Positions 19,001 to 57,977 of a stretch of DNA of 64,000 bases are shown here, piece by piece; the first letter of the stretch is position 1; every line of letters begins with the position of its first letter. The stretch is from an uncultured Chitinophagales bacterium (GTDB lineage: Bacteria; Bacteroidota; Bacteroidia; Chitinophagales; S012-47): positions 1,221 to 65,220 of the forward strand of contig CAYYHM010000007.1 of the NCBI GenBank assembly GCA_964471795.1, written 5' to 3'. The notes under the pieces are model-generated. The model did no database searches and was not told the origin of the DNA. It was given only the letters and a program-made list of their open reading frames with translations. The translations under genes and the position numbers were made by a program.

Positions 19001-21766
19001 GGAGAAGGGCGCTACTATGATGTGTACCTGACGGAGAACTCAAACCTGAATGGTGCCATCATCCGCGTAAATGGTCAGATTCTGGGGTACAACTCCGTAT
19101 CAACGGTATTCATCAACCCCGGACAACCGGTGTATGCCTACCTGATGCTCGACAGGAACCCATACTTCTACGATTATGAGGACATAGGCATCGGACTGCG
19201 CTCCAGCTGTGATCTCTATGTGTATGACGTGGCTACCTTCAGTGTACACTTCCGCCATCCTTGTTCGGATATCTCCATCAGCCAACCGTATGACAACTGG
19301 CTGATCAATGGCGATACCACATTGATGCCTGTGTACCTGACAGACTATGATCCATACAATCCGAAGCTGCAGAATGTGCAGCTGGTTTACCGTCGTATCG
19401 GCACGCCTGCGTGGGATACCATCGTAAGCCTGACCGCCGACTCCTTGCGGAACTATTTCGTTCGGTTCAGGCCTACCTATCCGGTGCCTACCTATCCGCA
19501 TGTGTGGGACATCTCTACGATTCCTGACCTGACGGACGGCGATTATGAGCTGATGGCCATTGCCAACTGTGCCACCAGTGGTGTGGTAACGTCGAATCGG
19601 GTACGAGGAACCATAGACCGCAGCACCTTCCGCTTGTTTGGTGTACCGCAGCCATCGGATGGATTGCTGAGTACAGGTGATGAGATATCGGTAAGCTTCA
19701 ACAAAGCCATCGACTGTCCGGTAAGTCAGGGTACAGCCGTGTACGAGTTCCGTGCTGATAGTGCCAATGGCCCGTTGGTGAATGCCTCGATGGCCTGCTT
19801 CGGCAACAAGATGGTGTTTTTGCTGGATAATCCGTTGTTGTATGAAGGCCGTATGGTCTATGCTACATTGAACGGCGTGTACGATGCAAGTGGCAACCTG
19901 CAGGCCGAAGAAGTAGCGTGGTCGTTCCGTGTGAGCAACAACCCGGTATATTGGCAGCCGATGCGCATAGAGGTGAGTGTGGAGAAAGGCACGCGTGGCC
20001 AGGTAACTGCTATGTTGCGCAATACAGGTGCCGGCAAGGACAATTACCAGCTGAGCTATACACAGGCATGGATGCGACCTTCGCCAATGGTGGGTCAGGT
20101 ACTTCCGGCAGGCATACCGGTAATGTTAGATCTGGATGCCACCAACCTGGAAGTAGGTACGTACAACGATGTAGTACGCGCAGCCATAGCCGGCTACACT
20201 ACCATCGATCTGCCGGTGACGATGCACGTCATCAAGCCATTGCCGGCGTGGAACGTAGATCCGGCTCAGTACCAGCATAGCCTCAACGTCATCGCCATCA
20301 ACTACATCGACTCGGTAGCTACTACCGATACCAACGATGTGATTACGGCCTGGGTGAATGGCACTCTGCGTGGTGTGGGCAAGATCCGTGAGGTGGCAGG
20401 GCCGCTGTACCGCAGCTATCTGACGGTTTACGGTAATGCCATCGATGCCGGTGCTATCATTGACTTCCGGGTATGGGATGCCAGCCGTGGCGCATTGTTC
20501 CAGGGTCATCCGGATAACGTGATGACTTTCGAGATCGATAACACCATCTATGGATCCACACCATCGCCTGAGAAGATCTGGGTGGACACAGACGTGGACT
20601 CATTCCGTATGATTCCGTTGAATCAGGGCTGGACATGGTTCTCCATCAACATTACTCAGCCGGATATGAGTGTGAACAACATCCTGCGTTCCATTTCTCC
20701 TGCCAATGGCGACATCATTATGGGCCAGGCGAAGAGTGCGGAATACCAGGTAGGTGTTGGCTGGACTACGTTGACCGGTTCGCCGGCCAACACGCTGCTG
20801 GATACCATCAGGCCTGTAGAAGGGTACATGATTCATCTGGCACAAGCAGACACCTTGTTGCTGACGGGCGAAGATGCACTGAACCAGCTGATTCCTGGCT
20901 TCAGCGGCTGGAACCTGATTGGTTACCTGCCGCAGGAAGCCCGTCCAATCAATGACGCATTCCTGACTACGGTAAGCTTTGCCGATGGTGATGTGCTGAA
21001 GAGCCAGACTGACTTTGCCATCTACAATGATGTAGATGCGGTGTGGGAAGGCAGTCTAACGGAGATGTCGCCCTATCAGGCCTACAAGCTGAAGTTGGGC
21101 AGTAACACAGGTGTGTACTACCGTGGTACGGGCCCGGCGGGCTGGAAGGTAGAGCCGTCGGCTTATGAGCATGCCATGCGTATGATGGCGGTGGTAAACG
21201 TGTTCGGCTTCGAGTTCAGGGATGAGGAGAGCATGGTAGCCGCCTTTATCAACGGAGAATGCCGCGGTGTTACCAAGCTGGTGTATGTGCCGCATCTGAA
21301 TCGCTATCTGGCGCCACTGTTCGTGTACAGCAACGAAGTAGGCGAAGAGGTGACATTCAAGATTTGGGACGGTATCATTGATACGCTATATGATGCTTCA
21401 CAGCGTATTGCGTTTAACCCGCAGGCACTACCCGGACGGATGCGGACGCCTTTTGTGGTGTCGCCACAAGGCACCAGTACAGGTACGGATGCAGGCATAG
21501 AGCCGGTACAACAGGCATTCAGTCTGCAGCCGAATCCATTCACCGAGCAGATGGTGCTGGAGATCACCGAGGAGATGGGCGACGACTACGAGGTAGTGAT
21601 GTACAACGCGATTGGCGAAGTAGTGTATCACCTAGATGCCAGCACCGTGAAAGGCAACAACCGCTTTGTGGTGAAGCCGCACAGAAAGTTGGATGCCGGC
21701 TTGTACATGGTGGTGATCCGCAATGGAGAACAGATGGTACAGCAGTTCAAGGTGGTGAAATTGTAA
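7064..21766 (+). CDS. Giant (4900 aa) T9SS-secreted mosaic cell-surface protein: FG-GAP/integrin-like propellers, LamG, Fn3 array, CarboxypepD_reg-like sandwiches, a long uncharacterised C-terminal region and a T9SS sorting domain
   Basis: Uninterrupted 14.7-kb ORF with signal peptide MKRILTLIVTLFSAISCIYAQ. Domain motifs are listed in the sub-features below. Every antisense ORF inside it is much shorter. Confidence 0.93.
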   Translation: MKRILTLIVTLFSAISCIYAQSYAPVLVESTPVPGGVRLTWTPVSSSSASGYHIYRNDVLIGVTDEVIDNEFTDRNPIAGAVVTYCVTSYQGSTESPYRNCIIDSSFYYGAFLASDSASDARIELTWSIDAGCLTVPGTDSIYLEVKNATTNEDVFVQILQADSVPTASEAVVSVALSGGNHLLLDAAYTGGSLTSTFLTGIGRAIAIDGNRAVIGAPLADGGLGKAHVYERVGNEWVETAQLVPATRSITDNYGESVDIYGGKIIVGAPGGNGIAYVFELSGGVWSETGQLTADFQQVNDDFAKSVVIDTQFALVGAPAKYGAQGVIFLYMKSGSTWNRIGRIFSRFPAPGQRFGYSLDFDGSMLAVGCPGNSAGRGSAYLFQKLGFSFIYRAALNPGTLVVNDRFGESISVQGGRAVVGAPGSNGNKGRVYVFHQQNAFNWPLAATLAPAELQAGDRFGEGVAHYGDLLSGGAPTRAADNGAVYFYRYSSSWQANGKAVRPAGSAGDGYGLAMDMWTDGLLVGAPYEQGGQSAVYKYFHNGNIWNGTGTIGGIKGPSNTLELWVLRNGPQVGNGALISDDFVSFNMTSPTLDRVNFSTGAVVYHFNYQVPMNRWTHLALVSDSSTGRSRLYANGALVDEKPNFFLYGVERAGFQPGQTPPNQLQAQIRDIRYWSDARTGQEIADNFDQVLTGMEPDLTGYWKVSEGAGNTAADATGHYPPAVYQTGSPAPWVIDSIAPIISGTATEWVGADKVMAYTLNTYSIGFGTPLCPPTKLDTGSTLPYKVPAIVVDSSRPDQMTLSWVNTSEAISYYRVVRDGLSLGLLDSTALNWTDSYRYGVTNTLTNGQPYRYCLVPFSTWFLTNGQPTVYDSICVRGNTLPIAFMAADNTAPASVDLTWNDMSAFGDWIEIYRDGSFFAQLDSQAVAYTDANPVPGKRHVYEFRLLNDGDIVVAATDTGSILPVGVLAGRVITQSGDYALAGVAIEATAIVEGDTMRYQTVTGLAGDFHMDQVYFGTTSSYSVTATAQAGYNITTPAQNVVLKISDPERTNLVFKGDKDIQPTGTQALALTNFQATDLPGQDMIQLSWTYSSPDTTWFKVYRDDALLTILTDTASGTLTSYNDLTGEPGTNYQYEIQAYVYDNDSVVTEVSAGDDASLSLLSAVDTFDASVVVGDGTVLLTWSHSSTNFDGFVLYRDGDVLDTISAAAAYSFVDEQGIPGRNYTYRIRTFASRNDSTHYSAYTDGVPSPVTYPGLLPPAVVDATAVAAQDHVVITWTYPVTGNANFFGFEVYRTASGNTDTLTLYHKDFYTGILGGFYQYQYIDYTGIPGLNYEYGVASIKQMPYFASTVNSDTEVYPAVSEVSGLSASTTYTDHVELTWAAGSTNHQGYEVWRNGNKVAALGKSARSYTDAVNTASSARSFAYTIKAIRDIDGAMYTSTGVAATGSTLALPNDGLQIPLNFVASDQYTNHVQLSWQYPPYVLSKFFIYKDGQLIDSLDNSLRFYFDTAVAPGDVHTYAIEGRWMGDISARASDAGRLGSLLQVEGMAQSDEGYGIPGVRVALSVGGIETDAAYTDATGFYRMQGVANVPGTTVTVTASGPNAAFLQPTQQITISAGTDRYVVNFTDTFYHRLILPDSDVATPVPFLASIDRLTNQVELRWNVTNPNYSGFRIFRGLAQAANVPAGQPLNYLDPFASPGFDYYYSIFAYYYKPTGTVHSDTIHTGIFVPKVPPVEGLQALPDFDEDVVKLYWSHPTDKHTYYEIQRNGSVIATVPAGERLFFADTTGKPGYLYRYTVTCYLVNSAGFFNSDPVVVETNFPDVAPITELALTPVPADNRVDVNWRHTSAYYTYALVYRDNVVIDTVYRNMPLKQSLDYWGRPGMATRYAVQSVVQKDNTYFFSDTVGLSVVYPTLYTPVLDGDVAGVDRLTLQGSYLPADGYSGFEFYRDNDQLPGSPRSGIAASFTFEDNDGVPDSSYTYKVRAFKDVDVTYYSPYATRTVAFPPLAPPFACAASDGAYFNHIEITWQHSSTANDGFILYRDNAAIDTLPAGARKYKDIVNSSSNSGVNPVYFLRAYKVDNGNWYVSVPSNSDDGYALIQQFSILSSYTDSVAGAHLGLNVAIGADFALGGTGTSTQVAKTYDLDVTGNFSPGADLTPDAASGTSTAFGYDVAIAGTRALVGSPWSWNASPSSLFYRSGEVYVYNKPIGQNVSLDTILRNFNFLPTIFRSEHRLGTPINMQRVESNAWSTFVVNDVTTSVGPADTSIGTGSGLTSFGNQLFFDVTNDVVLNQVTVYPQDTGVVSVTIRPASGGPIYSQNFNVQPIAAYAATVLTLNAAIPPGTGYKIDAQGSNNIGALYRNNGGVSYPYTEPEGVVSITGSSAGGSFYYYFYDWQVTVKDTVGTRVHELATSYTVDTFSATFAVNLPTNHTYGTDIQLDTVWVRMSKNGWTQGTRVTLENVTLEKVGTGFTKTLFSTNTSISCPQDSIDIALVSTGGSGLVSANCSNSVTGVFTSASNFAASGITTNGNYRLTFRARLHDPVDTVANALTGQVIVDEVKLSYSTLAGGIYANAQSTGAEMGRAVALNASMIAGGGPIFNTQRGLVTTFIQRGDWEPLDTLFAPTTAAPFCSYTVSVNGNGYMDETQWTLRDNTNTVIASGGPYIFGGGGSVTVNTANAPLTFYIETQGTFNDNVASFSIVSNGIVIRSGTIFGGQTRTENNINGTCAGAQFGYSLAMGPNRMIVGMPREVNPADNFGSKGAVYYYELGSDGNWVQRQKIAIQQPGPSDDQFGFSLALSGNTLAVGAKGDDWDANASFWDAGSVSLYEFNVSANEYQFQRKIFNPDNPRKTFEFFGNDIAIQGNLMAIGAPGVNKLGSGSVTNAGAVYLYEKDENGNWLLKQRYFADDAQSGGRFGSSVAISGNTLMIGSDGYDAGSAADAGKVYFIYFRDQIDSVVASDGTEGTKTRIEWVYNGVRSNLNNFNIYRDGVLIAAANPNESFVFDYDGIPGKKYVYQVAPVSLDKVVGVTKGDEGWREENGILDGIVLTFDGQVGVPGINIEAWAMVEGERFSYSTITDQEGKFKIKRMYYSDSTRYFVRAWKPGHEFKKDTMDTEFNLQQFQRTVDPFYDLTAYVVTGVAKYENTDCPIDSMDVTQFKILNDGTVFKETRQTNSEGSYTFNIEPFNTDINRYEYHIAGERYRVSDSNLLDTVYYHWSDKVKVLNNPASVGKTTVLSDFVDTTTYQVQLFVQNVCGPIGQNSWQVQVQSTDGCYNQLVSTNLNGFRNLYLPPKDYVFRVVGVASPSAQTLPVVDYLKVRPRSLDLIALHESLNGAVSDTLVPMNFVFHVTPNIGITNLTDFLCDDPTLPVVVSTGDVKTYNVVVGETFDGITCPVNEGFLIIRNNASVEGTVQIDYDPATGSFPPYTFTVGSPNIVSPYVKFMFVEYHTESDGFLGSYAVAFLIQGVAGVPGNDIIVTPASENDQVLLPLMILRDPPGDGSFAQIDSGTTFESTLSVQDEYKFGLGLGIEVKTKVFGSGIQLDIAGKVTGGFDRNTQFKVTATTSKTIQTSSDSQADAADQSSRFTGDRADVIVGSGLALQYGIGVEVSVDDTCGVIVANRITTGAEVRTTWIYAVDQIRHLVNEYNRNIENARNGTYTIDTLSAQATEEFLALRRDNWNQILNYHSVKTLPHYAFCDPANFAQIPEPWKSAAVAWRTEGFCTLIGSYSPDGQTFNMNEDIVWDANLIERYNKVRQQVGDIEDYLNYKGQVIYVESLLDQVQLDQAYLSLYGPDAKNITFSGGTSFSEERAITRERGSSFKQKVGGGASIAGQTIAAGKVVTFVGAWVGFGGGAMGGTVLELTEFGVSLKPSFEFEINYEQTQGSTNGLQQKVSYTLSDDDPGDQYSVTIVRGAQANHTPYFSLLGGRTSCPTEPGAISRDMPDIQLMGPGGMPVSPVTFNADPDKPFIIPIQLANLNPFGEGRYYDVYLTENSNLNGAIIRVNGQILGYNSVSTVFINPGQPVYAYLMLDRNPYFYDYEDIGIGLRSSCDLYVYDVATFSVHFRHPCSDISISQPYDNWLINGDTTLMPVYLTDYDPYNPKLQNVQLVYRRIGTPAWDTIVSLTADSLRNYFVRFRPTYPVPTYPHVWDISTIPDLTDGDYELMAIANCATSGVVTSNRVRGTIDRSTFRLFGVPQPSDGLLSTGDEISVSFNKAIDCPVSQGTAVYEFRADSANGPLVNASMACFGNKMVFLLDNPLLYEGRMVYATLNGVYDASGNLQAEEVAWSFRVSNNPVYWQPMRIEVSVEKGTRGQVTAMLRNTGAGKDNYQLSYTQAWMRPSPMVGQVLPAGIPVMLDLDATNLEVGTYNDVVRAAIAGYTTIDLPVTMHVIKPLPAWNVDPAQYQHSLNVIAINYIDSVATTDTNDVITAWVNGTLRGVGKIREVAGPLYRSYLTVYGNAIDAGAIIDFRVWDASRGALFQGHPDNVMTFEIDNTIYGSTPSPEKIWVDTDVDSFRMIPLNQGWTWFSINITQPDMSVNNILRSISPANGDIIMGQAKSAEYQVGVGWTTLTGSPANTLLDTIRPVEGYMIHLAQADTLLLTGEDALNQLIPGFSGWNLIGYLPQEARPINDAFLTTVSFADGDVLKSQTDFAIYNDVDAVWEGSLTEMSPYQAYKLKLGSNTGVYYRGTGPAGWKVEPSAYEHAMRMMAVVNVFGFEFRDEESMVAAFINGECRGVTKLVYVPHLNRYLAPLFVYSNEVGEEVTFKIWDGIIDTLYDASQRIAFNPQALPGRMRTPFVVSPQGTSTGTDAGIEPVQQAFSLQPNPFTEQMVLEITEEMGDDYEVVMYNAIGEVVYHLDASTVKGNNRFVVKPHRKLDAGLYMVVIRNGEQMVQQFKVVKL
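7670..8700 (+). other. Domain: seven FG-GAP (integrin-alpha-like) blades
   Basis: There are seven units of the type (F/Y)GxSVxIxGxxxxVGAPxxxxxGxAYVF. Examples are GESVDIYGGKIIVGAPGGNGIAYVF, FGYSLDFDGSMLAVGCPGNSAGRGSAYLF and FGESISVQGGRAVVGAPGSNGNKGRVYVF. Confidence 0.75.
8740..9200 (+). other. Domain: LamG / concanavalin-A-like lectin fold
   Basis: WTHLALVSDSSTGRSRLYANGALVDE and IRDIRYWSDARTGQEI are typical of Laminin_G_3-type domains. Confidence 0.6.
9430..13240 (+). repeat. Array of a dozen or more Fn3-like modules interspersed with CarboxypepD_reg-like beta-sandwiches
   Basis: Recurrent (L/I)(T/S)W...(G/N)(Y/F)x(V/I)YR(D/N)(G/D)...Y.Y.(V/I) units, about 85-95 aa each. Examples are LTWNDMSAFGDWIEIYRDG, LSWTYSSPDTTWFKVYRDD and LTWSHSSTNFDGFVLYRDG. 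Two segments look CarboxypepD_reg-like: AGRVITQSGDYALAGVAIEA... and GIPGVRVALSVGG...TGFYRM. Confidence 0.7.
15250..15910 (+). other. Domain: second block of FG-GAP blades
   Basis: FGYSLAMGPNRMIVGMP...GAVYYYE, FGFSLALSGNTLAVGAKGDD...GSVSLYEF, FGNDIAIQGNLMAIGAPG...GAVYLYE and FGSSVAISGNTLMIGSDG...GKVYFIYF. Isolated blades occur earlier at about 13330-13700 and 14800-14880. Confidence 0.7.
21518..21763 (+). other. Domain: T9SS (Por) C-terminal sorting domain of the giant protein
   Basis: FSLQPNPFTEQMVLEITEE...YNAIGEVVY...GLYMVVIRNGEQMVQQFKVVKL matches the usual type-A CTD pattern. Confidence 0.85.
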
Positions 21767-21820
21767 CCACCGCTGCTACCTGATAACTGATAAAGGGCTG
21801 CCGAAAGGCGGCCCTTTTTT
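21738..21820. repeat. 83-bp direct repeat, copy 1 (last 9 codons and stop of the giant gene, plus its terminator)
   Basis: Aligns without gaps to 25847-25929 at a constant offset of 4109 nt. 80 of 83 positions are identical; the mismatches are at 21772, 21791 and 21813. Confidence 0.95.
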
Positions 21821-25846: not shown

Positions 25847-25929
25847 TACAGCAGTTCAAGGTGGTGAAATTGTAACCACCCCTGCTACCTGATAACTGAC
25901 AAAGGGCTGCCGAAAGGCGGCGCTTTTTT
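25847..25929. repeat. 83-bp direct repeat, copy 2 (non-coding relic of the giant-gene 3' end plus terminator)
   Basis: See copy 1. It begins 3 nt after the BNR gene stop. The hairpin AAAGGGCTGCC-GAAA-GGCGGCGCTTT plus T6 is retained. The T-tract overlaps the stop codon (25928-25930) of the convergent hydrolase gene. Confidence 0.95.
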
Positions 25930-26908: not shown

Positions 26909-27055
26909 AGAGGATCGACCAACCTTAAAAACGGTCAACGCTATTTAGGGATGGTCAGGCAACTGGCAACCCACAACTAAGGATTGATAATCCAATATAA
27001 CTGGGAGATTGCCATGCCTGAGGCGGACAAGCCACGGTCGTTCCTCCCTCGCAAT

Positions 27056-27145
27056 AAACCTTGAACCTTGAACCTTAAACCTTGAACCTACCTGCGGCAG
27101 GCAGGCTTGCTTTGAACCTTGAACCTTGAACCTTGAACTCCAAAC
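27056..27145. repeat. Heptamer microsatellite arrays (AACCTTG)n flanking the conserved core CCTACCTGCGGCAGGCAGGCTT
   Basis: aaaccttgaaccttgaaccttaaaccttgaaCCTACCTGCGGCAGGCAGGCTTgctttgaaccttgaaccttgaaccttgaactcc. The 11-mer GGCAGGCAGGC is at 27096-27106. The element lies about 85 nt upstream of the polyprenyl synthase start. Confidence 0.9.
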
Positions 27146-27229
27146 ATCCAACCTCAAATATCTAATATCCAACTTCCCCATCCAACTTCCCCTCCTCCCG
27201 TTTCGTTGTATCTTCGTGCAAACGATAAC

Positions 27230-28219: not shown

Positions 28220-28675
28220 GTGAATTAGAAAATCAGAAAATTAGAGGATTAGAAAATGGGCCGAGCCGTTGTGGCGCAGTATTGCTAAGCGTGCTGCGAT
28301 CTACGATTGGCCTGCTGCTAGTCAGGTTACTCAGAACGGATATCCGACAACCGAGAACGCTGAAATAGTGAATTAGAAAATCAGAAAATTAGAGGATTAG
28401 AAAATGGGCCGAGCCGCTGTGAGCGCAGTGTCGGTGTGCGTGCTGCGAACTACTATTGGCCTGCGGCCAGTCAGGTGATTCTTAACGGACAACCCACAAT
28501 ACCCAACCGAGAACGCTGAAATAGCGAATTAGAAAATCAGAAAATTAGAGGATTAGAAAATGGGCCGAGCCGCTGTGGCGCAGTGTAGGTGTGCGTGCTG
28601 CGATCTACAATTGGCCTACTGCTAGTCGGGTGACTTAAAACAGACAACCGACAACGGATAACGGACAACTTGAAA
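28220..28675. repeat. Three tandem copies of a ~148-156-bp intergenic repeat
   Basis: Units start at 28220, 28368 and 28524. Each begins G(T/C)GAATTAGAAAATCAGAAAATTAGAGGATTAGAAAATGGGCCGAGCCG (an 8-bp sub-periodicity TTAGAAAA). A GC-rich middle follows (..GCGCAG..GTGCTGCGA..TTGGCCT..GCTAGTC.GGT), then a CCGACAAC-type tail. Confidence 0.9.
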
Positions 28676-28705
28676 CCCTTACACTTCGACAAGCTTAGTG
28701 TGACA

Positions 28706-28742
28706 CCAACTTCGAACTTCGAACATTGAACATTGAACTCTG
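28706..28742. repeat. Short heptamer array (CTTCGAA/CATTGAA)
   Basis: ccaacttcgaacttcgaacattgaacattgaactct, immediately 3' of the membrane-fusion gene stop. Confidence 0.7.
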
Positions 28743-28751
28743 CACTACAGG

Positions 28752-32075: not shown

Positions 32076-32197
32076 TTTGTGGTTTATTGATTGTGGTGTT
32101 TAATTACCTCAACCTACAACCTACAATCCACAACAGATCGCCGACAACCGGCATCCGAGGTCAAACAACTGCAAACTTCAATATGCTTATTTGACGG

Positions 32198-32240
32198 CAA
32201 CTTTGAACTTTGAACCCTCAACCTTGAACCCCAAACCTCC
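32198..32240. repeat. Heptamer array (CTTTGAA/CCTTGAA type) upstream of the SOD gene
   Basis: caactttgaactttgaaccctcaaccttgaaccccaaacctcc, preceded at 32100-32135 by CAACCTA/CAACAG-type low-complexity units. Confidence 0.7.
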
Positions 32241-32329
32241 CCGCCAATTGAACTATTTTTGCATCCTCAGGTTTAGGAATACGAACTATCGACACAACTG
32301 TTTATTCACCCAAAAAAATAACGCATACC

Positions 32330-32935
32330 ATGGCTTTTCAATTACCCGATCTGCCCTATGCACACGATGCACTGGAGCCGAACATCGACACACTTACCAT
32401 GCAAATCCATCATGGGAAACACCATGCCGCTTACACTACGAACCTGAATAATGCTATCGCCGGCACCGAACTGGAGAGTCAATCAATTGAAGCTATCATT
32501 GCACATGCCGGAGCTCATGGAGCGGCTGTGCGCAACAATGGTGGCGGGTTTTATAACCACAACCTGTTTTGGACTGTGATGAGCCCCAACGGGGGAGGCC
32601 AGCCTGCCGGTGAGTTGGCTGAGGCCATCAATGCCGCTTTCGGTTCATTCGATGCATTCAAGGAAACCTTCGCCAAAGCAGCCGCTACTCGTTTCGGTTC
32701 CGGCTGGGCTTGGCTGATCGTACAGAACGGTACGCTGAAAGTAACGTCTACCCCCAACCAGGACAATCCCCTGATGGATGTGGCCGAAGAAAAAGGCACC
32801 CCCATCTTCGGCATCGATGTATGGGAACATGCCTACTACCTGCACTACCAGAACCGCCGTCCCGACTATATCTCCGCTTTCTGGAATGTAGCCGACTGGG
32901 ACGAAGTAGCCCGCAGGTACGCTGCCGCTAAATAA
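32330..32935 (+). CDS. Fe/Mn-family superoxide dismutase
   Basis: 201 aa. [31 protein letters not shown] and the DVWEHAYYL signature. Confidence 0.93.
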
Positions 32936-34905: not shown

Positions 34906-35003
34906 ATCACCATTCATTGAAAATCAGCCCATTCAGTTGGCACATTCGTTTTTCCCCCTTTTCTTAGCAGCATGCTCTTCCGGACATGCATCGCGGTATG
35001 CTG
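34906..35003 (+). promoter_or_regulatory. Conserved leader element, copy A (5' of, and overlapping, the annotated start of the 207-aa secreted-protein gene)
   Basis: atcaccattcattgaaaatcagcccattcagttggcacattcgTTTTTCCCCCTTTTcttagcagcatgctcttccggacatgcatcgcggtatgctgg. By eye about 90% identical to copy C (37923-38020), apart from the homopolymer block. Confidence 0.7.
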
Positions 35004-35609
35004 GAGATTGTTTTGTTTACTACCTCCAAAAAACCCTTCACTATTAAACACCTTGTCCCCGCTATCACTCTTTTGCTGGCTTCTTTCTTTTTCACCTCAG
35101 TAACAGCTCAGAACTGGTACAATCCCGGTGAAACCTATGTGTTCCAATCGCTTAGTGGCCATGATTATGGCCAGGCAGTGCAGGTACAGATAGTGTTTGA
35201 TAGTGCCGGGGTAGCTACAGTTTCCCAATCCTACCATACTGGCTCCGGTACTGATCAAATCCGCGGCTATTTCCGTGGCCGGCAGGGAGACTGGTCGTTC
35301 AGTGATAACACCTTGTCCATTCCCGGTAATGCGCCTTCCTATTTCCTGCTAACCCTGGACGATTTGCGAGTGTATGCCATCAATGGTGGTGCCATTTCAC
35401 TCCACTGTGCTTGCAAGGCCGGCACCGATGAAGAGGCTACCTGCGAAGTCTCCCTTGTGGTAGCTGAGGGTGGGCACCATCTTAGTCTGGCCTGTAGGTC
35501 TGCCTTAGGGTGCAGTAGCTGTATCAAGCCGGTTGTTTCATCCACAGGCTTGGGCGATTTCTCACAAGGATTCCTGATAATGCAGGCCACTTCGGTGGTA
35601 ATTGAGTGA
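34986..35609 (+). CDS. Secreted protein, unknown function
   Basis: 207-aa ORF with signal-like segment LVPAITLLLASFFFTSVTAQ. The start codon is uncertain because the first ~6 codons lie inside the conserved leader. Cys-rich C-terminal half. Confidence 0.55.
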   Translation: MHRGMLEIVLFTTSKKPFTIKHLVPAITLLLASFFFTSVTAQNWYNPGETYVFQSLSGHDYGQAVQVQIVFDSAGVATVSQSYHTGSGTDQIRGYFRGRQGDWSFSDNTLSIPGNAPSYFLLTLDDLRVYAINGGAISLHCACKAGTDEEATCEVSLVVAEGGHHLSLACRSALGCSSCIKPVVSSTGLGDFSQGFLIMQATSVVIE

Positions 35610-35650: not shown

Positions 35651-36172
35651 GTGATGCGTCCGCTTCTGTTTCTTTTTTCCATAGGATGGCTGTTGGGTTG
35701 TAAATCATACCCGCCATTGCCCACTGTGGCATCGGTAGATTTAGAACAATATGCAGGTACCTGGTATGAGATAGCCAGCTTCCCTAGTCGTTTCCAGCGG
35801 GGGTGCCATTGTACCACAGCTACGTACACCTTGCATCCCAAAGGTTATGTGGTGGTAGAGAATCGCTGCAACCGCGATAGCACCACCGGCAAGGAGAGCT
35901 ACATCAAGGGCAAGGCGTTTGTGGTAAAGGGCAGTGGCAATGCCCGTCTCAAGGTGCAGTTCTTTTGGCCCTTCCGGGGCGACTACTACATCATCCATCT
36001 CGCCAGCGATTATCGCTATACCCTGGTAGGCTCACCCAGCCGCAATTACCTGTGGTTACTGAGTCGTACCCCGCAGCTGCCGGCATCCGACATCGACACA
36101 TTGCTACAAGCCGCCAAGGATGTAGGTTTCGATACCAGCCGATTGGTTTTTACGGTGCAGGAGGGGTGTTGA
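35651..36172 (+). CDS. blc: Bacterial lipocalin (Blc-like outer-membrane lipoprotein)
   Basis: 173 aa. Lipobox SIGWLLGC. Lipocalin signature YAGTWYEIASFPSRFQRGC. Confidence 0.85.
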   Translation: MMRPLLFLFSIGWLLGCKSYPPLPTVASVDLEQYAGTWYEIASFPSRFQRGCHCTTATYTLHPKGYVVVENRCNRDSTTGKESYIKGKAFVVKGSGNARLKVQFFWPFRGDYYIIHLASDYRYTLVGSPSRNYLWLLSRTPQLPASDIDTLLQAAKDVGFDTSRLVFTVQEGC

Positions 36173-36255
36173 GTGGTGAAATTGATCTTCTTCCTTGTAA
36201 TAAAAACGCCCCTTACGATAGGTAAGAGGCGCCTTGCATTTTTGGAGGTGGCGGA

Positions 36256-36345
36256 TCACAACTTCCCCACCATCTTTTCCGGCTACACTTAGCGGTCAAA
36301 TTCTTCTTCAGTCAGTAGCTCCAGTGCCAGGGTTGCTTCCTTTAA
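36256..36345 (-). pseudogene. Relic of a fumC 3' end (about the last 28-30 codons, with two internal stops)
   Basis: My minus-strand translation is ..[27 protein letters not shown], against the intact fumC C-terminus ..[29 protein letters not shown]. 36259-36283 is identical to 39331-39355 (25 nt) and the rest is diverged. A hairpin/T-run at about 36205-36245 precedes it, as at the intact gene. Confidence 0.8.
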
Positions 36346-36481
36346 AATTGATGGTACAAGTACTTATGTGAAGTGACAGTAATGGGTAAGGGATTGCCAT
36401 ACTAATGTTAAGAAAGTATTTAATCGACATTTGCGACTAAATAAATAGTGAAAAATATCCACATACTCTTGACAAAGTCAA

Positions 36482-36574
36482 TTTTTTTTTTTCACTTTAG
36501 TACCATGCTCTTCCGGAAATGCATCGCGGTATGCCGAAAAGCGAATAGAGTAGGCTCACTTAAACACCACAATC
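36482..36574 (+). promoter_or_regulatory. Conserved leader element, copy B (runs up to the ATG of the 171-aa lipoprotein gene)
   Basis: T11-cactttagtacCATGCTCTTCCGGAAATGCATCGCGGTATGCCGAAAAGCGAATAGAGTAGGCTCACTTAAACACCACAATC-ATG. Nearly identical to copy C over the last ~70 nt. Similarity stops at the start codon. Confidence 0.7.
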
Positions 36575-37090
36575 ATGAAAGTATCAATTATTTTGATTGC
36601 CCTTTTAGTTGGATTAACAGTGGGATGTAAAAAGGAAGATATTGGAGCTTCCACAAATAACCAGTCTCAATCCAACAAATTCAATGCACCTGTTTATGAG
36701 AAGATCAAATTCTGCGTAAAGCATAGTGGCAATTCTCAATGTTACGTTACGCCATGTTCGCCATGTGATTGTCCTTTAGGTATATGTTTAATTAGGACAA
36801 GGCGGTATGGATCAGGCTTAAGTGTAGATGAAATTCAGGATGGGTATGGAACAGGTAATGCCTATTTTGATACTACCTATAACGAGGTAATGATAGTTTT
36901 TGACCAGGCTACTGCATTACCGGATTCGACAATTCCTGTTACTACTAATAATCGGGTATGGGATCAAAACAATGATATTGTTCAAAATTTCGGTTATGAT
37001 TCAATAGTGTTTGATGTTGGCTCTTATCCAGTGAACTTTGACAGCTTACCATACGGTTTTGTGATTCTGCCATATGTGGCTTATAAGTGA
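36575..37090 (+). CDS. Small Cys-rich lipoprotein, unknown function
   Basis: 171 aa. Lipobox LVGLTVGCKKE. Cys cluster CYVTPCSPCDCPLGIC. Low GC (a sampled line is about 37%). Confidence 0.6.
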   Translation: MKVSIILIALLVGLTVGCKKEDIGASTNNQSQSNKFNAPVYEKIKFCVKHSGNSQCYVTPCSPCDCPLGICLIRTRRYGSGLSVDEIQDGYGTGNAYFDTTYNEVMIVFDQATALPDSTIPVTTNNRVWDQNNDIVQNFGYDSIVFDVGSYPVNFDSLPYGFVILPYVAYK

Positions 37091-37122
37091 GTTATCGGAT
37101 TTCCTTACACTTTAAAATTTCT

Positions 37123-37155
37123 CATCCATAGAAGCTATGATAGCTTCTATGGATG
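37123..37155. terminator. Perfect 15-bp-stem hairpin (terminator-like, no T-run)
   Basis: CATCCATAGAAGCTA-tga-TAGCTTCTATGGATG. Confidence 0.5.
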
Positions 37156-37165
37156 GGCTTTCGAT

Positions 37166-37819
37166 ATGATGTCAAGACTGTTAATCGTTCTCGTACTTCT
37201 CAATGTTGCCTCGTGTAGGCCCATTCAACAATGGGTATTTGGTTTTAGGATCATTACCGAATTTGAGCCTGAGAAAAGCGTCACCTTCATGCAGAAAATG
37301 GGGATTGACCAGCCGCTTATCTATGTAGATGCCGATTTATACAATCAATACCAAAAGGAGCAGCAGTACAATTGGTTGGCTATGGATAGGTCAATGCAGC
37401 CGATGCAGATGCGTATGTACAATCAGCAAGGTGACTTAGTAGGCTACACGGTAAATTGTGTTACCGGCATGGATCAAAACAGGAAGCTTGATTGGTTCAA
37501 GGACTACCATAGCGAATGTGTGTTGGACAGTTTTGGACAGGAAGCTTATGTAGGGTTCACGCCACCGCCTACCCTTCAGGAAGAAGTGAGATACTGGGTG
37601 GCTGAGGAGCCAATTGTCATTGATTCCTCCAAGCAGCATGTAGTTGTCTATTATTCCAGGGTAGTCATGAAACAGAATATACACTTGGTAGAGGAGGTGA
37701 AACGTAGGTTTGGGCATTGTGAGGACGTGAACATTATCTACGTATCCCTTGAAGAGGTGATAGCTAAGTGGTTTTCTGATACGTTGGAGTATTATCCCCC
37801 AGTGGAGGATGACAAGTAA
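37166..37819 (+). CDS. Lipoprotein, unknown function
   Basis: 217 aa. Lipobox VLLNVASCRP. No catalytic motif recognised. Confidence 0.55.
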   Translation: MMSRLLIVLVLLNVASCRPIQQWVFGFRIITEFEPEKSVTFMQKMGIDQPLIYVDADLYNQYQKEQQYNWLAMDRSMQPMQMRMYNQQGDLVGYTVNCVTGMDQNRKLDWFKDYHSECVLDSFGQEAYVGFTPPPTLQEEVRYWVAEEPIVIDSSKQHVVVYYSRVVMKQNIHLVEEVKRRFGHCEDVNIIYVSLEEVIAKWFSDTLEYYPPVEDDK

Positions 37820-37922
37820 TGAGAAGAACAGCTTATGCCTAATGAATGTGTAAGCGAGGGATAGGTACAACGTACGCTGGGGCCTGCTTCCTCATTGCAT
37901 AGTCACACATCGCTGTACTTAC

Positions 37923-38054
37923 ATCACCACTCATTGAAAATCAACCAATTCATTTGGCACATTCGTTTTTTTTTCTTAGCGACATGCTCTTCCGGAAAAT
38001 GCATCGCGGTATGCCGAAAAGCGCATAGAGTAGGCTCACTTAAACACCACAATT
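37923..38054 (+). promoter_or_regulatory. Conserved leader element, copy C (full length, runs up to the ATG of the 146-aa lipoprotein gene)
   Basis: atcaccactcattgaaaatcaaccaattcatttggcacattcg-T9-cttagcgaCATGCTCTTCCGGAAAATGCATCGCGGTATGCCGAAAAGCGCATAGAGTAGGCTCACTTAAACACCACAATT-ATG. The upstream half matches copy A and the downstream half matches copy B. Confidence 0.7.
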
Positions 38055-38495
38055 ATGAGAAATTTACCATTCTTGCTACTCATTTTTTTAGCGATTATCG
38101 CATTTGGATGCAATAAGGCAACCACTGAATTAGATTCAGAATCAACCATAATCAGTGGAAAGAAAAAAGCAGTTGATATCACTATTACATCCAACGAAGG
38201 TTGCCTGATCCGGATTCAAGGAGATGTTGAGTTTACTATATTGCCACCAGAAATTACAGGATTTACGGGTACAATTACATTCTTAGGGGGTGGGGCGAAT
38301 TGTCCAACAGGAGTGCTTACGTTTGGTATGATTTCTAGTGGTCAAGATCTGACCATAAGCTTGGATAATTCCAATCCATGTTTAGCCACAGTAATTACAT
38401 GGTCGGGTTCATTCAGTCAAGAGATTCAAATCCTTCAGCAACTCAATATTCAGAATACCTTGCTGGCTGAGTTTGAGGCAATAACTGATTGCTAG
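38055..38495 (+). CDS. Small lipoprotein, unknown function
   Basis: 146 aa. Lipobox LAIIAFGCNKA. Confidence 0.6.
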   Translation: MRNLPFLLLIFLAIIAFGCNKATTELDSESTIISGKKKAVDITITSNEGCLIRIQGDVEFTILPPEITGFTGTITFLGGGANCPTGVLTFGMISSGQDLTISLDNSNPCLATVITWSGSFSQEIQILQQLNIQNTLLAEFEAITDC

Positions 38496-38508
38496 AAATC
38501 AACCGCAT

Positions 38509-39204
38509 ATGCTACACAGGATTATCATTTTCTTGTTTGTGACCAGCTGGGCGATTCTACCCGGCTGGTCGCAAATCTATTCTGCCACCTATCGATACAC
38601 GTTCAACACATTGGAAGAATTGATAGAACAGGTGAAAGAACCACAACAAGCAGCCACGTTTGTACTCCCTCTAAAGCTGGTTGTGGACTACACGGTGATT
38701 ACTGATGGAAGCAAGTACCTCGTCTCAGGCAAGCAAATATCTGCCGAAGGTTTGGGACTCGGATTCCATCAGCAAGGCCCCATTCGTGCTTTTGCCGATA
38801 TTTCTTCGGGTAAGGTAGTGTTGCAAGCAGATGATGGTCATTTTGGTGCCCCATCGTGGCTGTATAGCTATATGGTGGGGAAGCAACTTCCATCTGACCC
38901 AAATCACATCACCTACCAACTAGCAGCACCCGATAGTGGGTATACCGTTACTTTTTGTGATACCATTCCTCCAGCCATTCATCCGGTTACGCCTATTAGA
39001 GGCGCCACGGGAGGAGTTACGGCTATCCGGTCACAATTAGTGGAATGGGATCTGATGGGTTGGCAGAGGATACAGCGATTTCCTGCTCCCTGGCCAGACT
39101 TCCCAATGGGCAAGCCTGCTACTGACCAATTTTTCAAAATGCTTCCAGACGAAGCCACCATGTGGCAAAAAGTGAAAGCCGACTGGCAAAATGGTCAGCG
39201 GTAG
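38509..39204 (+). CDS. Secreted protein, unknown function (weak resemblance to the GLPGLI family)
   Basis: 231 aa. Signal peptide MLHRIIIFLFVTSWAILPGWSQ. The segment TFCDTIPPAIHPVTPIRGATGGVTAI is only loosely like the AWF..IP...GP..F.GLPGLI region. Confidence 0.5.
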   Translation: MLHRIIIFLFVTSWAILPGWSQIYSATYRYTFNTLEELIEQVKEPQQAATFVLPLKLVVDYTVITDGSKYLVSGKQISAEGLGLGFHQQGPIRAFADISSGKVVLQADDGHFGAPSWLYSYMVGKQLPSDPNHITYQLAAPDSGYTVTFCDTIPPAIHPVTPIRGATGGVTAIRSQLVEWDLMGWQRIQRFPAPWPDFPMGKPATDQFFKMLPDEATMWQKVKADWQNGQR

Positions 39205-39281
39205 GCAGTTGTGAGAGTGATCACTTTGGCTATCCTCATGTGGTCGTCAATACGATAAGTGATTATGCTGTCACCAAAAGC

Positions 39282-39318
39282 AAAAGGCCCTTCACCAGGG
39301 CCTTTTGCGCATTTTTTA
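39282..39318. terminator. Bidirectional terminator between the island and fumC
   Basis: AAAAGGCCCT-TCACC-AGGGCCTTTT followed by GCGCATTTTTTA. Confidence 0.75.
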
Positions 39319-39328
39319 TGGCTGTAGT

Positions 39329-40726
39329 TTACAACTTCCCCACCATCTTTTCCGGTATTACTATCCGGTCGAATTCTTCCTCCGTCAACAGGCCCAATTG
39401 CAGGGCGGCTGCTTTCAGGGACGTGCCTTCGGCATGGGCTGTCTTGGCTATCTTGGCCGCATTGTCGTACCCAATGTGGGTGTTCAGGGCCGTTACCAGC
39501 ATCAGTGAATTGTTGAGGTGTTCCTTGATGCGCGCATAGTTGGGCTGTATGCCAATAGCGCAGTGGTCGTTGAACGACACACAAGCATCCCCAATTAAGC
39601 GGGCACTGTGCAGGAAGTTGTAGATCATCATCGGCTTGAACACGTTCAGCTCAAAGTGGCCGGTGGCGCCACCCACGTTGATGGCTACATCGTTGCCCAG
39701 CACTTGCGCACACACCATGGTCAAGGCTTCTGATTGGGTAGGGTTCACCTTACCCGGCATGATGGAGCTGCCCGGCTCATTCTCAGGGATGATGATTTCA
39801 CCAATGCCACTGCGAGGGCCGCTGCTTAGCATGCGGATGTCGTTACCGATCTTCATCAGGCTCACGGCCAGCGTCTTTAAGGCACCATGTGCTTCCACAA
39901 TGGCGTCATGTGCTGCCAGGGCCTCGTACTTGTTGGCCGCACTGCGGAAGGGAAGTCCTGTCAGGTCGGCAATATGAGCCGCCACCTTGTCGGCATAGCC
40001 TTCCGGTGTGTTGATGCCTGTGCCTACGGCCGTGCCACCCAGTGCCAGTTCGCTCAGGTGATCCAGCGTGTTGCGCAGGGCTTTCATGCCGTGGTCCAGC
40101 TGCGCCACATAGCCGCTGAACTCCTGCCCCAGGGTAAGCGGAGTAGCATCCATGAAGTGGGTACGGCCAATCTTCACCACCTTCCAAAATTCTTGGCTCT
40201 TGGCTGCCAGCGTATCGCGCAGCAGCTGCACACCCGGCAGGGTGGTCTCCACCACCATTTTGTAGGCGGCTATGTGCATGGCAGTAGGGAAAGTATCATT
40301 GCTGCTCTGGCTCTTGTTCACATCATCGTTGGGGTGGAGGGTCTTGCCGCCATCACCCAGGGTGCCGCCATTGAGTACGTGGGCGCGGTTGGCAATCACT
40401 TCATTCACGTTCATGTTGCTCTGCGTGCCGGAGCCGGTTTGCCACACCACCAGCGGAAACTGGTCATTCCACTGACCTGCCAATATTTCGTCACACACCT
40501 TACCAATCAGCGTGGCTTTTTCTGCCGGCAACACACCACAGTCGCGGTTGGCCAGGGCGGCAGCTTTCTTCAGATAGGCAAATGCCTCCACGATTTCCTG
40601 TGGCATACGCTGACGTTCGCCACCAATCTTGAAATTCTCCAGGCTGCGCTGTGTCTGTGCGGCCCAATACTTGTCGGCAGGTACCTGCACCTGCCCCATG
40701 GTGTCTTTTTCTATTCTGTAGCTCAT
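39329..40726 (-). CDS. fumC: Class II fumarate hydratase
   Basis: Signature [16 protein letters not shown]. The N-terminus [28 protein letters not shown] is typical. The start is set at ATG 40726; the track's 40852 start adds 42 non-homologous residues that overlap the neighbouring gene. Confidence 0.95.
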
Positions 40727-44966: not shown

Positions 44967-45028
44967 TAAAGAGGAGAGTAGGAGCTCATTAAAAATAGTC
45001 TGCTAGAAAAGTGCTGATAGCTGTAGAC

Positions 45029-45107
45029 CTGACAGGTTTTCAAAACCTGTCAGGTCTACAGCTATCCAAAATAAACCTCCAAGGTTTCAAAAACCTTGGA
45101 GGTTTGC
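45029..45107. repeat. 79-bp double-hairpin element, copy 1
   Basis: CCTGACAGGTTTTCAAAACCTGTCAGG...AAACCTCCAAGGTTTCAAAAACCTTGGAGGTTT. 74 of 79 positions are identical, without gaps, to 54851-54929. In this copy the first palindrome extends to 45025-45059 (17-bp arms). Confidence 0.95.
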
Positions 45108-54814: not shown

Positions 54815-54850
54815 GACTTTCAAAAATTGTTGATTTATAGGGTTATAAGT

Positions 54851-54929
54851 CCTGACAGGTTTTCGAAACCTGTCAGGTCTGACGATATCCAAAATAAACC
54901 TCCAAGGTTTCAAAAACCTTGGAGGTTTG
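54851..54929. repeat. 79-bp double-hairpin element, copy 2
   Basis: CCTGACAGGTTTTCGAAACCTGTCAGG...AAACCTCCAAGGTTTCAAAAACCTTGGAGGTTT. See copy 1. Starts 36 nt after the stop of the last T9SS gene. Confidence 0.95.
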
Positions 54930-57774: not shown

Positions 57775-57872
57775 GTTGTTCATTTGGTGGAAAAAGAATG
57801 ATGATGACTAACTGCCTTCCTGTTATTTTGGATGCCGGACATTGGATGTTGGACGTTTGACAATTGACCGAC

Positions 57873-57977
57873 AACTTTGAACTTTAAACTTTAAACTTTA
57901 AACTTTAAACTTTGAACCTTGAACCTACCTACGGCAGGCAGGCTTTGAACCTTGAACTTTCAACTTTGAACTTGCAC
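57873..57977. repeat. Heptamer microsatellite arrays (AACTTTA/AACTTTG/AACCTTG) flanking the core CCTACCTACGGCAGGCAGGCTT
   Basis: aactttgaactttaaactttaaactttaaactttaaactttgaaccttgaaCCTACCTACGGCAGGCAGGCTTtgaaccttgaactttcaactttgaacttgc. The 11-mer is at 57933-57943. The element overlaps the track's 5' end of meaB. Confidence 0.9.

Follow-up and report, generated by a model that had tools for sequence, protein, structure and literature searches.

A recombinase-less lipoprotein islet at the fumC 3' end of an uncultured Saprospiraceae-like bacterium, with a far boundary that resembles the end of another fumC allele

Introduction

Streptococcal integrative and conjugative elements (ICEs), integrative and mobilizable elements (IMEs) as well as cis-mobilizable elements (CIMEs) integrate in the 3' ends of the housekeeping genes fda, rpsI, rpmG and rplL; the CIMEs, which measure 1.2-13 kb, have kept their attachment (att) sites and lost all recombination and transfer genes (PMC7563491). 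Here we describe a block of four small genes, isl1-isl4, situated just beyond the 3' end of fumC in an uncultured member of the Bacteroidota (contig CAYYHM010000007.1 of assembly GCA_964471795.1); the stretch of 64,000 nucleotides (nt) that was analysed is called the window below. The far side of the block is marked by a second, truncated fumC 3' end, termed the relic, as distinct from the complete, resident fumC. The locus is an islet of known architecture, flanked by repeats and devoid of a recombinase gene, that adjoins the 3' end of a housekeeping gene; its twist is the relic arm, which by sequence comparison is xenologous. We favor the reading that the two fumC ends are the joints of an insertion, made by a crossover in a 25-nt block that both ends share and accompanied by the import of a piece of another fumC.

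In Escherichia coli, e14 and phage 21 integrate into icd, a gene of the tricarboxylic acid (TCA) cycle, and leave a displaced icd 3' pseudogene fragment; there the duplicated segment has the crossover at its 5' boundary, the element supplies a new 3' end and it encodes its own integrase. Integrative mobile elements exploiting Xer recombination (IMEX) instead use the Xer recombinases of the host at the dif site. Lastly, Campbell-type integration of a circularised chromosomal fragment through as little as about 25 nt of identity is, to our knowledge, unusual in nature.

A second fumC end delimits the islet

The resident fumC, read on the minus strand (Table 1), is intact at its 3' end, as the preliminary description of this DNA, made from the letters alone, had held: it codes for 465 aa with complete coverage of the Pfam domains Lyase_1 and FumaraseC_C. 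At a spacing of about 3.07 kb from its end, the relic comprises the last 29 codons (87 bases) and the stop of a fumC in exact register with the resident C-terminus, confirming the earlier recognition of a fumC-like C-terminal end on this strand. A repeat search recovered the pair as a 107-nt direct repeat (36236-36342 and 39309-39415; 72% identity, 3073 nt spacing), within which a 25-mer, ACAACTTCCCCACCATCTTTTCCGG, is found in exactly two copies in the window against none expected from 100 shuffles. The identity of these 25 nt had been reported correctly; the relic copy had been placed at 36259-36283, one base off its true position, 36258-36282. A formal alignment, the check proposed at the outset, establishes similarity beyond the 25-mer, the relic coding arm without it matching the resident gene in local alignment with z = 12.6, a score that none of 2000 shuffles reached.

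Past the stop codon the two copies show no similarity in local alignment (z = 0.8), with AAAAATGC alone in common. A strong hairpin followed by a T-run stands 3' of each copy in gene orientation, as had been described, with folding energies of -23.6 and -27.9 kcal/mol; homology between these two terminators was considered and rejected, their sequences being unrelated in local alignment. The picture of a sharp block of identity between diverged flanks thus holds, with 25/25 identical positions in the core, 63% identity in the adjoining arm and unrelated terminators. The hairpin at 36203-36235, which serves both blc and the relic, is probably the native fumC/blc terminator.

Between the copies lie the four plus-strand genes, three of them with lipoboxes (LTVGC in isl1, VASC in isl2 and AFGC in isl3) and the fourth, isl4, with a signal-peptide-like N-terminus, which bears out the earlier account of four signal-peptide or lipobox genes. 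The order that it drew is real, with the 3' end of the gene and a terminator on one side of the AT-rich block and another 3' end with its terminator on the other: two independent Logan assemblies from two samples (L081, L082) recover it at 99.97-100% identity, and it is therefore not an assembly artefact. Compositionally, GC content is 0.36-0.44 across 36150-38500 and 0.48-0.50 across isl4. Gene by gene, from isl1 to isl4, it is 0.37, 0.44, 0.39 and 0.49, so that the figure of about 37% once given for the island fits isl1 and not the remaining genes. The corresponding GC at third codon positions (GC3) is 0.30, 0.54, 0.34 and 0.48, a block range of 0.30-0.54 as against 0.56-0.73 in the flanking housekeeping genes, the kind of compositional offset that marks an integrative island.

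Short open reading frames (ORFs) do overlap the relic (36234-36371, plus strand, 45 aa; 36308-36430, minus strand, 40 aa), which could make it part of a functional ORF or non-coding RNA, or a mere chance similarity. These options are effectively refuted: one of the overlapping ORFs is the antisense of the fumC reading frame, no Rfam family matches the relic, and chance would have to produce a 25-mer expected zero times, an arm aligning at z = 12.6, and the frame and register of the FumC C-terminus.

The relic arm resembles a working fumC of another lineage

Two contigs provide the yardstick for the divergence of the arm: L088, with the fumC ortholog of another organism and no island, and L092, an independent metagenome contig in which a fumC end abuts homologs of isl1 and isl2. 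In the arm upstream of the core, 63 nt long, identity is 63% for relic and resident, 65% for resident and L088, and 67% for L088 and relic. When codon positions 1, 2 and 3 are taken separately, the relic agrees with the resident at 70%, 80% and 50%, respectively, and the nine codons before the core that encode LLTEEEFDR in both copies show synonymous differences in six cases. Since the differences are mainly at third positions and amount to ortholog-level divergence, the arm is a stretch of another fumC allele, one that evolved as a working gene. Judged by these comparisons, the relic arm is xenologous, with decay limited to its truncation and two stops. The view that the relic is a decayed copy of the resident fumC end hence has to be given up, because the arm is as diverged as orthologs from different organisms and mostly synonymously so; the two in-frame stops noted at the time are there, whereas the divergence of the remainder is not the product of decay.

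The best match of the relic is the fumC end of L092 (arm 20/25, against 15/25 for the resident; overall 42/48 against 37/47). That contig ends with a fumC 3' end, ...EEFDRYVRPERMVGKLHQL and the stop, convergent on an isl2 homolog, and it also carries the isl1 and isl2 homologs convergent on that fumC end. Cassettes hence abut fumC in a second lineage, whose affinity the relic arm shares. The TAA stop of the relic is a single step from TAC (Tyr) at the same position in L088 and L092. Elsewhere this aromatic position is Trp in nearly all of the 80 fumC loci found in a genome scan and Val in one of them (L037). We further observed that in the resident gene (39356-39370, fumC codons 455-457) the conserved aromatic is replaced by Ile (ATA), and that the stop codons of the relic coincide exactly with the two ATA codons of the resident fumC in this stretch.

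If the relic were instead the original fumC 3' end of the host, then the 3' part of the present fumC, or the whole gene, would have been imported with the cassettes by homology-facilitated illegitimate recombination, with a homologous crossover upstream, in fumC or beyond it, and an illegitimate joint that preceded the old stop by about 90 nt. Such a course would agree with the topology; moreover, the relic-side terminator that is common to blc looks native, the relic TAA is one step away from the clade-typical Tyr codon, and the resident FDRIVI tail is atypical in lacking the Trp or Tyr of nearly all the 80 loci, L088 and L092. However, the GC3 of the resident fumC is uniform at 0.70, like that of its neighbors ech and mcm, and neither GC3 nor the identity profiles drawn against six relatives show a mosaic breakpoint in it, both of which fit a native resident gene. 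Further, the resident arm, which would be the donor sequence, is farther from the L092 fumC than the relic is, and the exact 25-nt identity is not predicted and would have to be clade conservation, to which we give a chance of roughly 2-10%. Taken together, this makes a native relic quite improbable.

We hold in similarly low regard the idea that a complete second fumC, either a paralog or a xenolog, once stood between blc and the cassettes and was deleted, leaving the relic behind, its edge position being incidental and the 25-nt identity being clade-wide conservation only. The arm diverged under purifying selection and so once belonged to a working gene, as such a history would have it, and the synteny around fumC is rearranged relative to that of relatives, with sod 6.4 kb away. 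There is also a weak collinear, in-frame similarity upstream of the relic to about 36432, where KCRLNTFLTLVWQSLTH faces a 17-residue resident stretch; we rejected this extension as not significant, since 760 of 2000 shuffles equalled it. A deleted gene would in addition leave to chance the exact core beside codons of which six in nine are synonymously changed and would not account for the parallel repeat-flanked blocks described below.

Joints at the stop codon and the enzyme behind them

In the reading that we favor, the relic and the resident fumC end would be the two joints of an insertion of about 3.07 kb, produced by a reciprocal crossover between a native and an imported fumC end within the 25 nt that overlap the fumC stop codon. 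The window would accordingly read, in order: blc, the native terminator, the 25-mer, an imported fumC-like arm, leader-isl1-isl2, leader-isl3-isl4, an imported terminator, the 25-mer and the native fumC. The insert would represent two cassettes from a strain-variable, leader-driven pool of lipoprotein genes of this Saprospiraceae-like clade, and it would have arrived with its piece of fumC from a related donor in which the cassettes already abut fumC. Unrelated sequences beyond the stop are to be expected in that case, because the flanks of the crossover would come from different parents. We assign a probability of roughly 0.65 to this account of the joints, i.e., crossover in the core plus an imported arm. 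Most likely, a sequence-specific recombinase working in trans would have produced the joint at a short site located at the stop codon, and the block would thereby be a CIME-like or IMEX-like passive island. We rank such an enzyme first because the recurrence of motif-bearing and repeat-flanked blocks in this window is hard to obtain with RecA alone; the full statement, joints and site-specific enzyme together, remains tentative, with odds somewhat short of even.

The main rival, ranked second, retains the same joints and changes the enzyme, with RecA mediating a single, Campbell-type crossover. A circularised chromosomal fragment of a related bacterium, bearing the 3' part of the donor fumC, its terminator and the cassettes, would have recombined with the host fumC at the clade-conserved last 25 nt, no other long stretch being identical, and any further donor fumC would have been deleted later. 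This explains a fumC-like, synonymously diverged relic arm without extra assumptions and dispenses with the recombinase that was not found; the core is of a kind that donor and recipient would share, L092 has the required donor arrangement with cassettes convergent on fumC, and the permuted order of cassettes in L093 and L094 would fit circular or tandem intermediates. Against these merits stand the requirement for a circular intermediate and for recombination on merely 25 nt of identity. Further, RecA leaves unexplained the 14/16 match between the ends of fumC and a giant gene, the 12-mer at three gene ends and the presence of three repeat-flanked blocks of the same layout in 64 kb. On balance we consider it possible but rather unlikely.

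A number of observations weigh against the insertion as we reconstruct it, or against its site-specific form, and foremost among them is the nature of the core. It is 24/25 identical in the island-free fumC of L088 and 22/24 in L092, from which its conservation emerges as a property of the clade, and the relic-resident identity could partly be that conservation. An identical core with diverged arms is hence how any two fumC ends of this clade look. The 25-mer by itself is no proof of an att core, and the preliminary description, which saw in it the classic att picture, was right about the sharp block and overrated its diagnostic value. This is a caution for att calls in general: orthologs without islands need checking beforehand, as a clade-conserved core alone yields the identical-core pattern. 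Likewise, a hand-worked Fisher test of core against arm at the codon level gives only p ~0.01. The core identity is still above that predicted from the adjacent synonymous divergence, and its conservation fits either a conserved attB or the sole stretch in which RecA could cross over.

The searches weigh in the same direction. The 25-mer core has no match in viral contigs and none in metagenome contig collections, and plasmid and phage records contain nothing that matches the DNA of the block; the wider search for the 25-mer, which had been proposed as a check, thus came back empty. A second downstream copy of the gene's own 3' end is present in 0 of 77 other Bacteroidota fumC loci. The 34 ORFs scanned across the window include none with a recombinase or transposase Pfam domain, in agreement with what had been said of it before. 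Together these results speak against an element that targets fumC and is widespread. As contigs L081 and L082 pass unbroken through both 25-mer cores, variants with an empty site or a circle do not seem to be abundant in their samples. Just 48 nt underlie the affinity between the relic and L092, the third repeat pair of the window is without the 16-nt motif that the other two share, and the site-specific model neither needs nor by itself explains the fumC-like arm 5' of the crossover.

The predicted junctions, ...GGAGGTGGCGGATCACAACTTCCCCACCATCTTTTCCGGTATTACTATCCGGTCG... for the empty site and ...GGCTGTAGTTTACAACTTCCCCACCATCTTTTCCGGCTACACTTAGCGGTC... for the circle, are searchable in existing metagenome reads, among them SRR14492177/188/199/200 for the same strain, SRR24907605 and SRR33375173 for the 97% variant and SRR10018916 for L092. 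If the favored reading holds, it would show how an uncultured Saprospiraceae-like bacterium varies its surface lipoproteins, with cargo-only blocks entering the last codons of a housekeeping gene harmlessly and then being reshuffled at a conserved leader.

Comparison with known systems

As in integrative islands at large, the direct repeats include the 3' end of the target gene (107 nt, of which 25 are exact) and fumC is intact; an integrase or recombinase gene inside the element, which such islands carry, is missing, and this excludes membership in the integrase-bearing families. The closest structural counterparts are the CIMEs, which the block resembles in being small, in consisting of cargo genes only and in being bounded by direct repeats where a conserved metabolic gene, itself left intact, has its 3' end; with neither integrase nor relaxase nor conjugation genes, it conforms to their structural definition. 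The likeness is structural only, as no fumC-specific ICE or IME is known or was found here. Unlike the streptococcal CIMEs, moreover, the block resides in a Saprospiraceae-like member of the Bacteroidota, its far repeat has an extra 60-nt foreign fumC arm, and its cargo consists of leader-driven lipoprotein cassettes that also shuffle internally.

The locus shares with icd and e14 the 3' end of a TCA-cycle gene as its site, a gene that stays functional and a diverged second 3' end at the far end. In contrast to that case, the identity block is the extreme 3' end of fumC, with the remaining similarity lying 5' of it, and at the 5' boundary, near 36342/39415, identity is absent. The lack of an own recombinase gene and joints at a short conserved chromosomal site recall IMEX; here, however, the site is a gene end and not dif, with no dif-like 28-bp structure shown and no evidence of a link to Xer. 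Finally, as in Campbell-type or homology-facilitated illegitimate integration, the homologous anchor is directly duplicated on the two sides of the insert, its copies being chimeras of donor and recipient.

Cassettes, leaders and their variability between strains

Table 1. Positions of the islet, its boundaries and adjoining features in the window
Feature	Position	Strand	Remarks
Third leader copy	34906..35001	+	outside repeat-bounded block; precedes secreted-protein ORF 34986-35609
blc (lipocalin lipoprotein gene)	35651..36172	+	Pfam Lipocalin_2, E = 1e-46; GC3 0.62; flank outside the insert
12-mer GTGGTGAAATTG	36173..36184	+	directly 3' of the blc stop; same as the end motif of the giant gene
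Relic-side bidirectional terminator hairpin	36203..36235	.	-23.6 kcal/mol, z -3.0; T-run on minus strand
Relic	36256..36345	-	3' end of a second fumC allele; in-frame stops TAA and TAG
25-nt block, copy 1	36258..36282	.	proposed crossover region
Leader 1 (promoter/5' untranslated region repeat)	36430..36574	+	precedes isl1; DUF805b-like hairpin 36523-36556
isl1	36575..37090	+	171-aa lipoprotein; no Pfam or NCBIfam family
isl2	37166..37819	+	217-aa lipoprotein; small family with QPLQ...NC...W motifs
Leader 2	37923..38054	+	precedes isl3; repeat of leader 1
isl3	38055..38495	+	146-aa lipoprotein; no Pfam or NCBIfam family
isl4	38509..39204	+	231-aa secreted protein; 71-75% homolog encoded in L093/L094
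Resident-side bidirectional terminator hairpin	39280..39308	.	-27.9 kcal/mol, z -3.8; common to isl4 and fumC
25-nt block, copy 2	39331..39355	.	last 8 codons and first stop-codon base of resident fumC
Resident fumC	39329..40726	-	GC3 0.70, uniform along the gene

None of the four island ORFs belongs to a Pfam or NCBIfam family, nothing was found for their proteins in metagenome or viral scans, and there is no paralogy among them and their neighbors. A protein search returned a single homolog of isl1, at 56% identity, and a small family for isl2. For isl3 there is no family and no relative in viral contigs, no wider homolog search having been made, and isl4 retrieved only itself in a word-index search, yet contigs L093 and L094 encode its 71-75% homolog. 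The isl2 family (P0124-P0137) consists of lipoproteins of about 200 aa with an invariant lipobox Cys and QPLQ, NC and L-W motifs; an AlphaFold2 model of isl2 (predicted local distance difference test score 79, predicted template modeling score 0.76) has no Foldseek match in the PDB.

Homologs of isl1 always adjoin homologs of isl2. The pair occurs as a 97% variant in L084 and L085 and as a variant with 60% protein identity in L092, and a distant isl1''-isl2'' pair is found in L090/L091, on a 36%-GC contig, next to a different, non-fumC gene. Around the pair the order changes: in L084 (1494-1610) a different gene (MLNLLLSL...) follows leader 2; in L093 (1-1264) and L094 (1-918) a homolog isl4' is followed by a 39-nt remnant of isl1 and then by isl2' with an internal stop; and in L095 (1-589) isl2' is followed by a leader of the ORF 34986 type. 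Since content and order differ between lineages in this manner, the isl genes form a variable accessory pool of the clade and not a one-off distant import. As a separate observation, a perfect 16-nt palindrome, CATCCATAGAAGCTAT / ATAGCTTCTATGGATG, with no T-run, is located between isl1 and isl2 at 37123-37155.

The cassettes are headed by a leader of about 100-150 nt, found before isl1 (36430-36578), isl3 (37923-38058) and ORF 34986 (34906-35001), the last of these lying outside the repeat-bounded block; it is also present in L084, L085, L092 and L095. Over 62 nt, leader 2 shares 97% identity with leader 1, and over 48 nt it shares 92% with the ORF 34986 leader. A 34-nt hairpin within the leader, with its AGAGUAGGC tail, matches the Rfam family DUF805b (RF02914), at 36523-36556 with 35.6 bits, which is exactly the gathering score, and at 38003-38036 with 31.6 bits, while the copies in L084 and L085 score 27.4 bits, below the threshold. 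The likeness to DUF805b RNA is limited to this hairpin and tail in the leaders: DUF805b RNAs lie upstream of DUF805 genes, whereas the genes downstream here, isl1 and isl3, have no Pfam match. In Aquirufa nivalisilvae, of a different order, a 28-nt stretch (L033, 7071-7098) is a 93% match to the hairpin region, and the leader hairpin fits a widespread Bacteroidota motif. Short-read contigs break at the leader, and the cassettes on either side of it differ between strains.

Relatives of the locus and its neighborhood

The host is a Saprospiraceae-like member of the Bacteroidota without a close relative in the collections searched: among 5.8 billion proteins the nearest FumC is that of the source itself, the next being 82% identical, and in the genome scan with FumC, which yielded the 80 loci mentioned above, the best GTDB representative is 81% identical. 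As the nearest FumC is only 82% identical, an empty-site comparison is not possible. None of the 80 fumC loci has blc, an arylsulfotransferase gene, ORF 34986 or the island proteins nearby, and look-ups with blc, sod, isl1 and isl4 retrieved same-strain, island-carrying contigs only. There is no tRNA gene in the window. An enoyl-CoA hydratase gene lies directly upstream of fumC, and sod (32330-32935) lies 6.4 kb beyond its 3' end. In nine Saprospiraceae loci (L001, L004, L020, L021, L047, L067, L070, L078 and L089) sod stands directly upstream of fumC in divergent orientation, and the fumC neighborhood has thus been rearranged.

Other repeat-flanked blocks and a shared end motif

The preliminary description had pointed to the same architecture at a giant gene of the window, and this is borne out by an 83-nt direct repeat of 96% identity (21738-21820 / 25847-25929), made up of the last 29 nt of the gene and its terminator. 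The giant gene is a type IX secretion system (T9SS) gene of 4900 aa, and the repeat encloses two genes in an AT-rich block of 4.1 kb (GC3 0.39-0.41), one with DUF7948 and the other with BNR and Por_Secre_tail domains, the second repeat copy standing directly after the stop of the second gene. A third pair, an 82-nt direct repeat of 93% identity composed of two perfect 13-bp hairpins (45025-45106 / 54848-54929), flanks another AT-rich secreted-protein block, 9.8 kb long, with four Por_Secre_tail genes of lowered GC3 (0.38-0.57), downstream of the methylmalonyl-CoA mutase gene.

Compared in register, fumC and the giant gene agree at 14 of their last 16 nt, making them the best non-paralog pair among 595 gene-end pairs. 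Contained in this stretch is a 12-mer, GTGGKGAARTTG, with five copies in the window against 0.01 expected: 21752-21763, 25861-25872 and 36173-36184 on the plus strand, 36259-36270 and 39332-39343 on the minus strand. These coincide with the stop codons of the giant gene and fumC, with both duplicates and with the position directly after the blc stop. The copies at blc (GTGGTGAAATTG) and in the relic (GTGGGGAAGTTG) are inverted relative to each other, each 23-24 nt away from the terminator hairpin that lies between them. In 91 loci fetched from other genomes the 12-mer was encountered only twice.

These features provide an unproven hint of a motif-directed system for loading cassettes. A bolder version, which we regard as speculative and improbable, is that this genome loads AT-rich blocks of surface-protein genes, lipoproteins as well as T9SS cargo, at gene ends by means of one sequence-specific system encoded elsewhere, which would recognise a site of about 16 nt that overlaps the stop codon, GGTGG(T/G)GAA(A/G)TTGT(A/G)A. 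The three repeat-flanked blocks in 64 kb, the 14/16 end match and the motif copy after blc would then be its footprints, and the DUF805b-like leaders would be the internal cassette boundaries at which shuffling between strains takes place. If true, an uncultured lineage of the Saprospiraceae would have an integron-like economy of cassettes with no integrase linked to it; the candidate attachment motif can be checked against a complete genome.

Two further kinds of repeat were observed in the window. Intergenic arrays of a 7-nt unit (AACCTTG / AACTTTG) are found at 27042-27154, 28700-28747, 32191-32257 and 57865-57972. Three copies of a 138-nt unit, at a spacing of about 150 nt and with 60-88% identity, occupy 28222-28663 between a polyprenyl synthetase gene and an HlyD-family gene.

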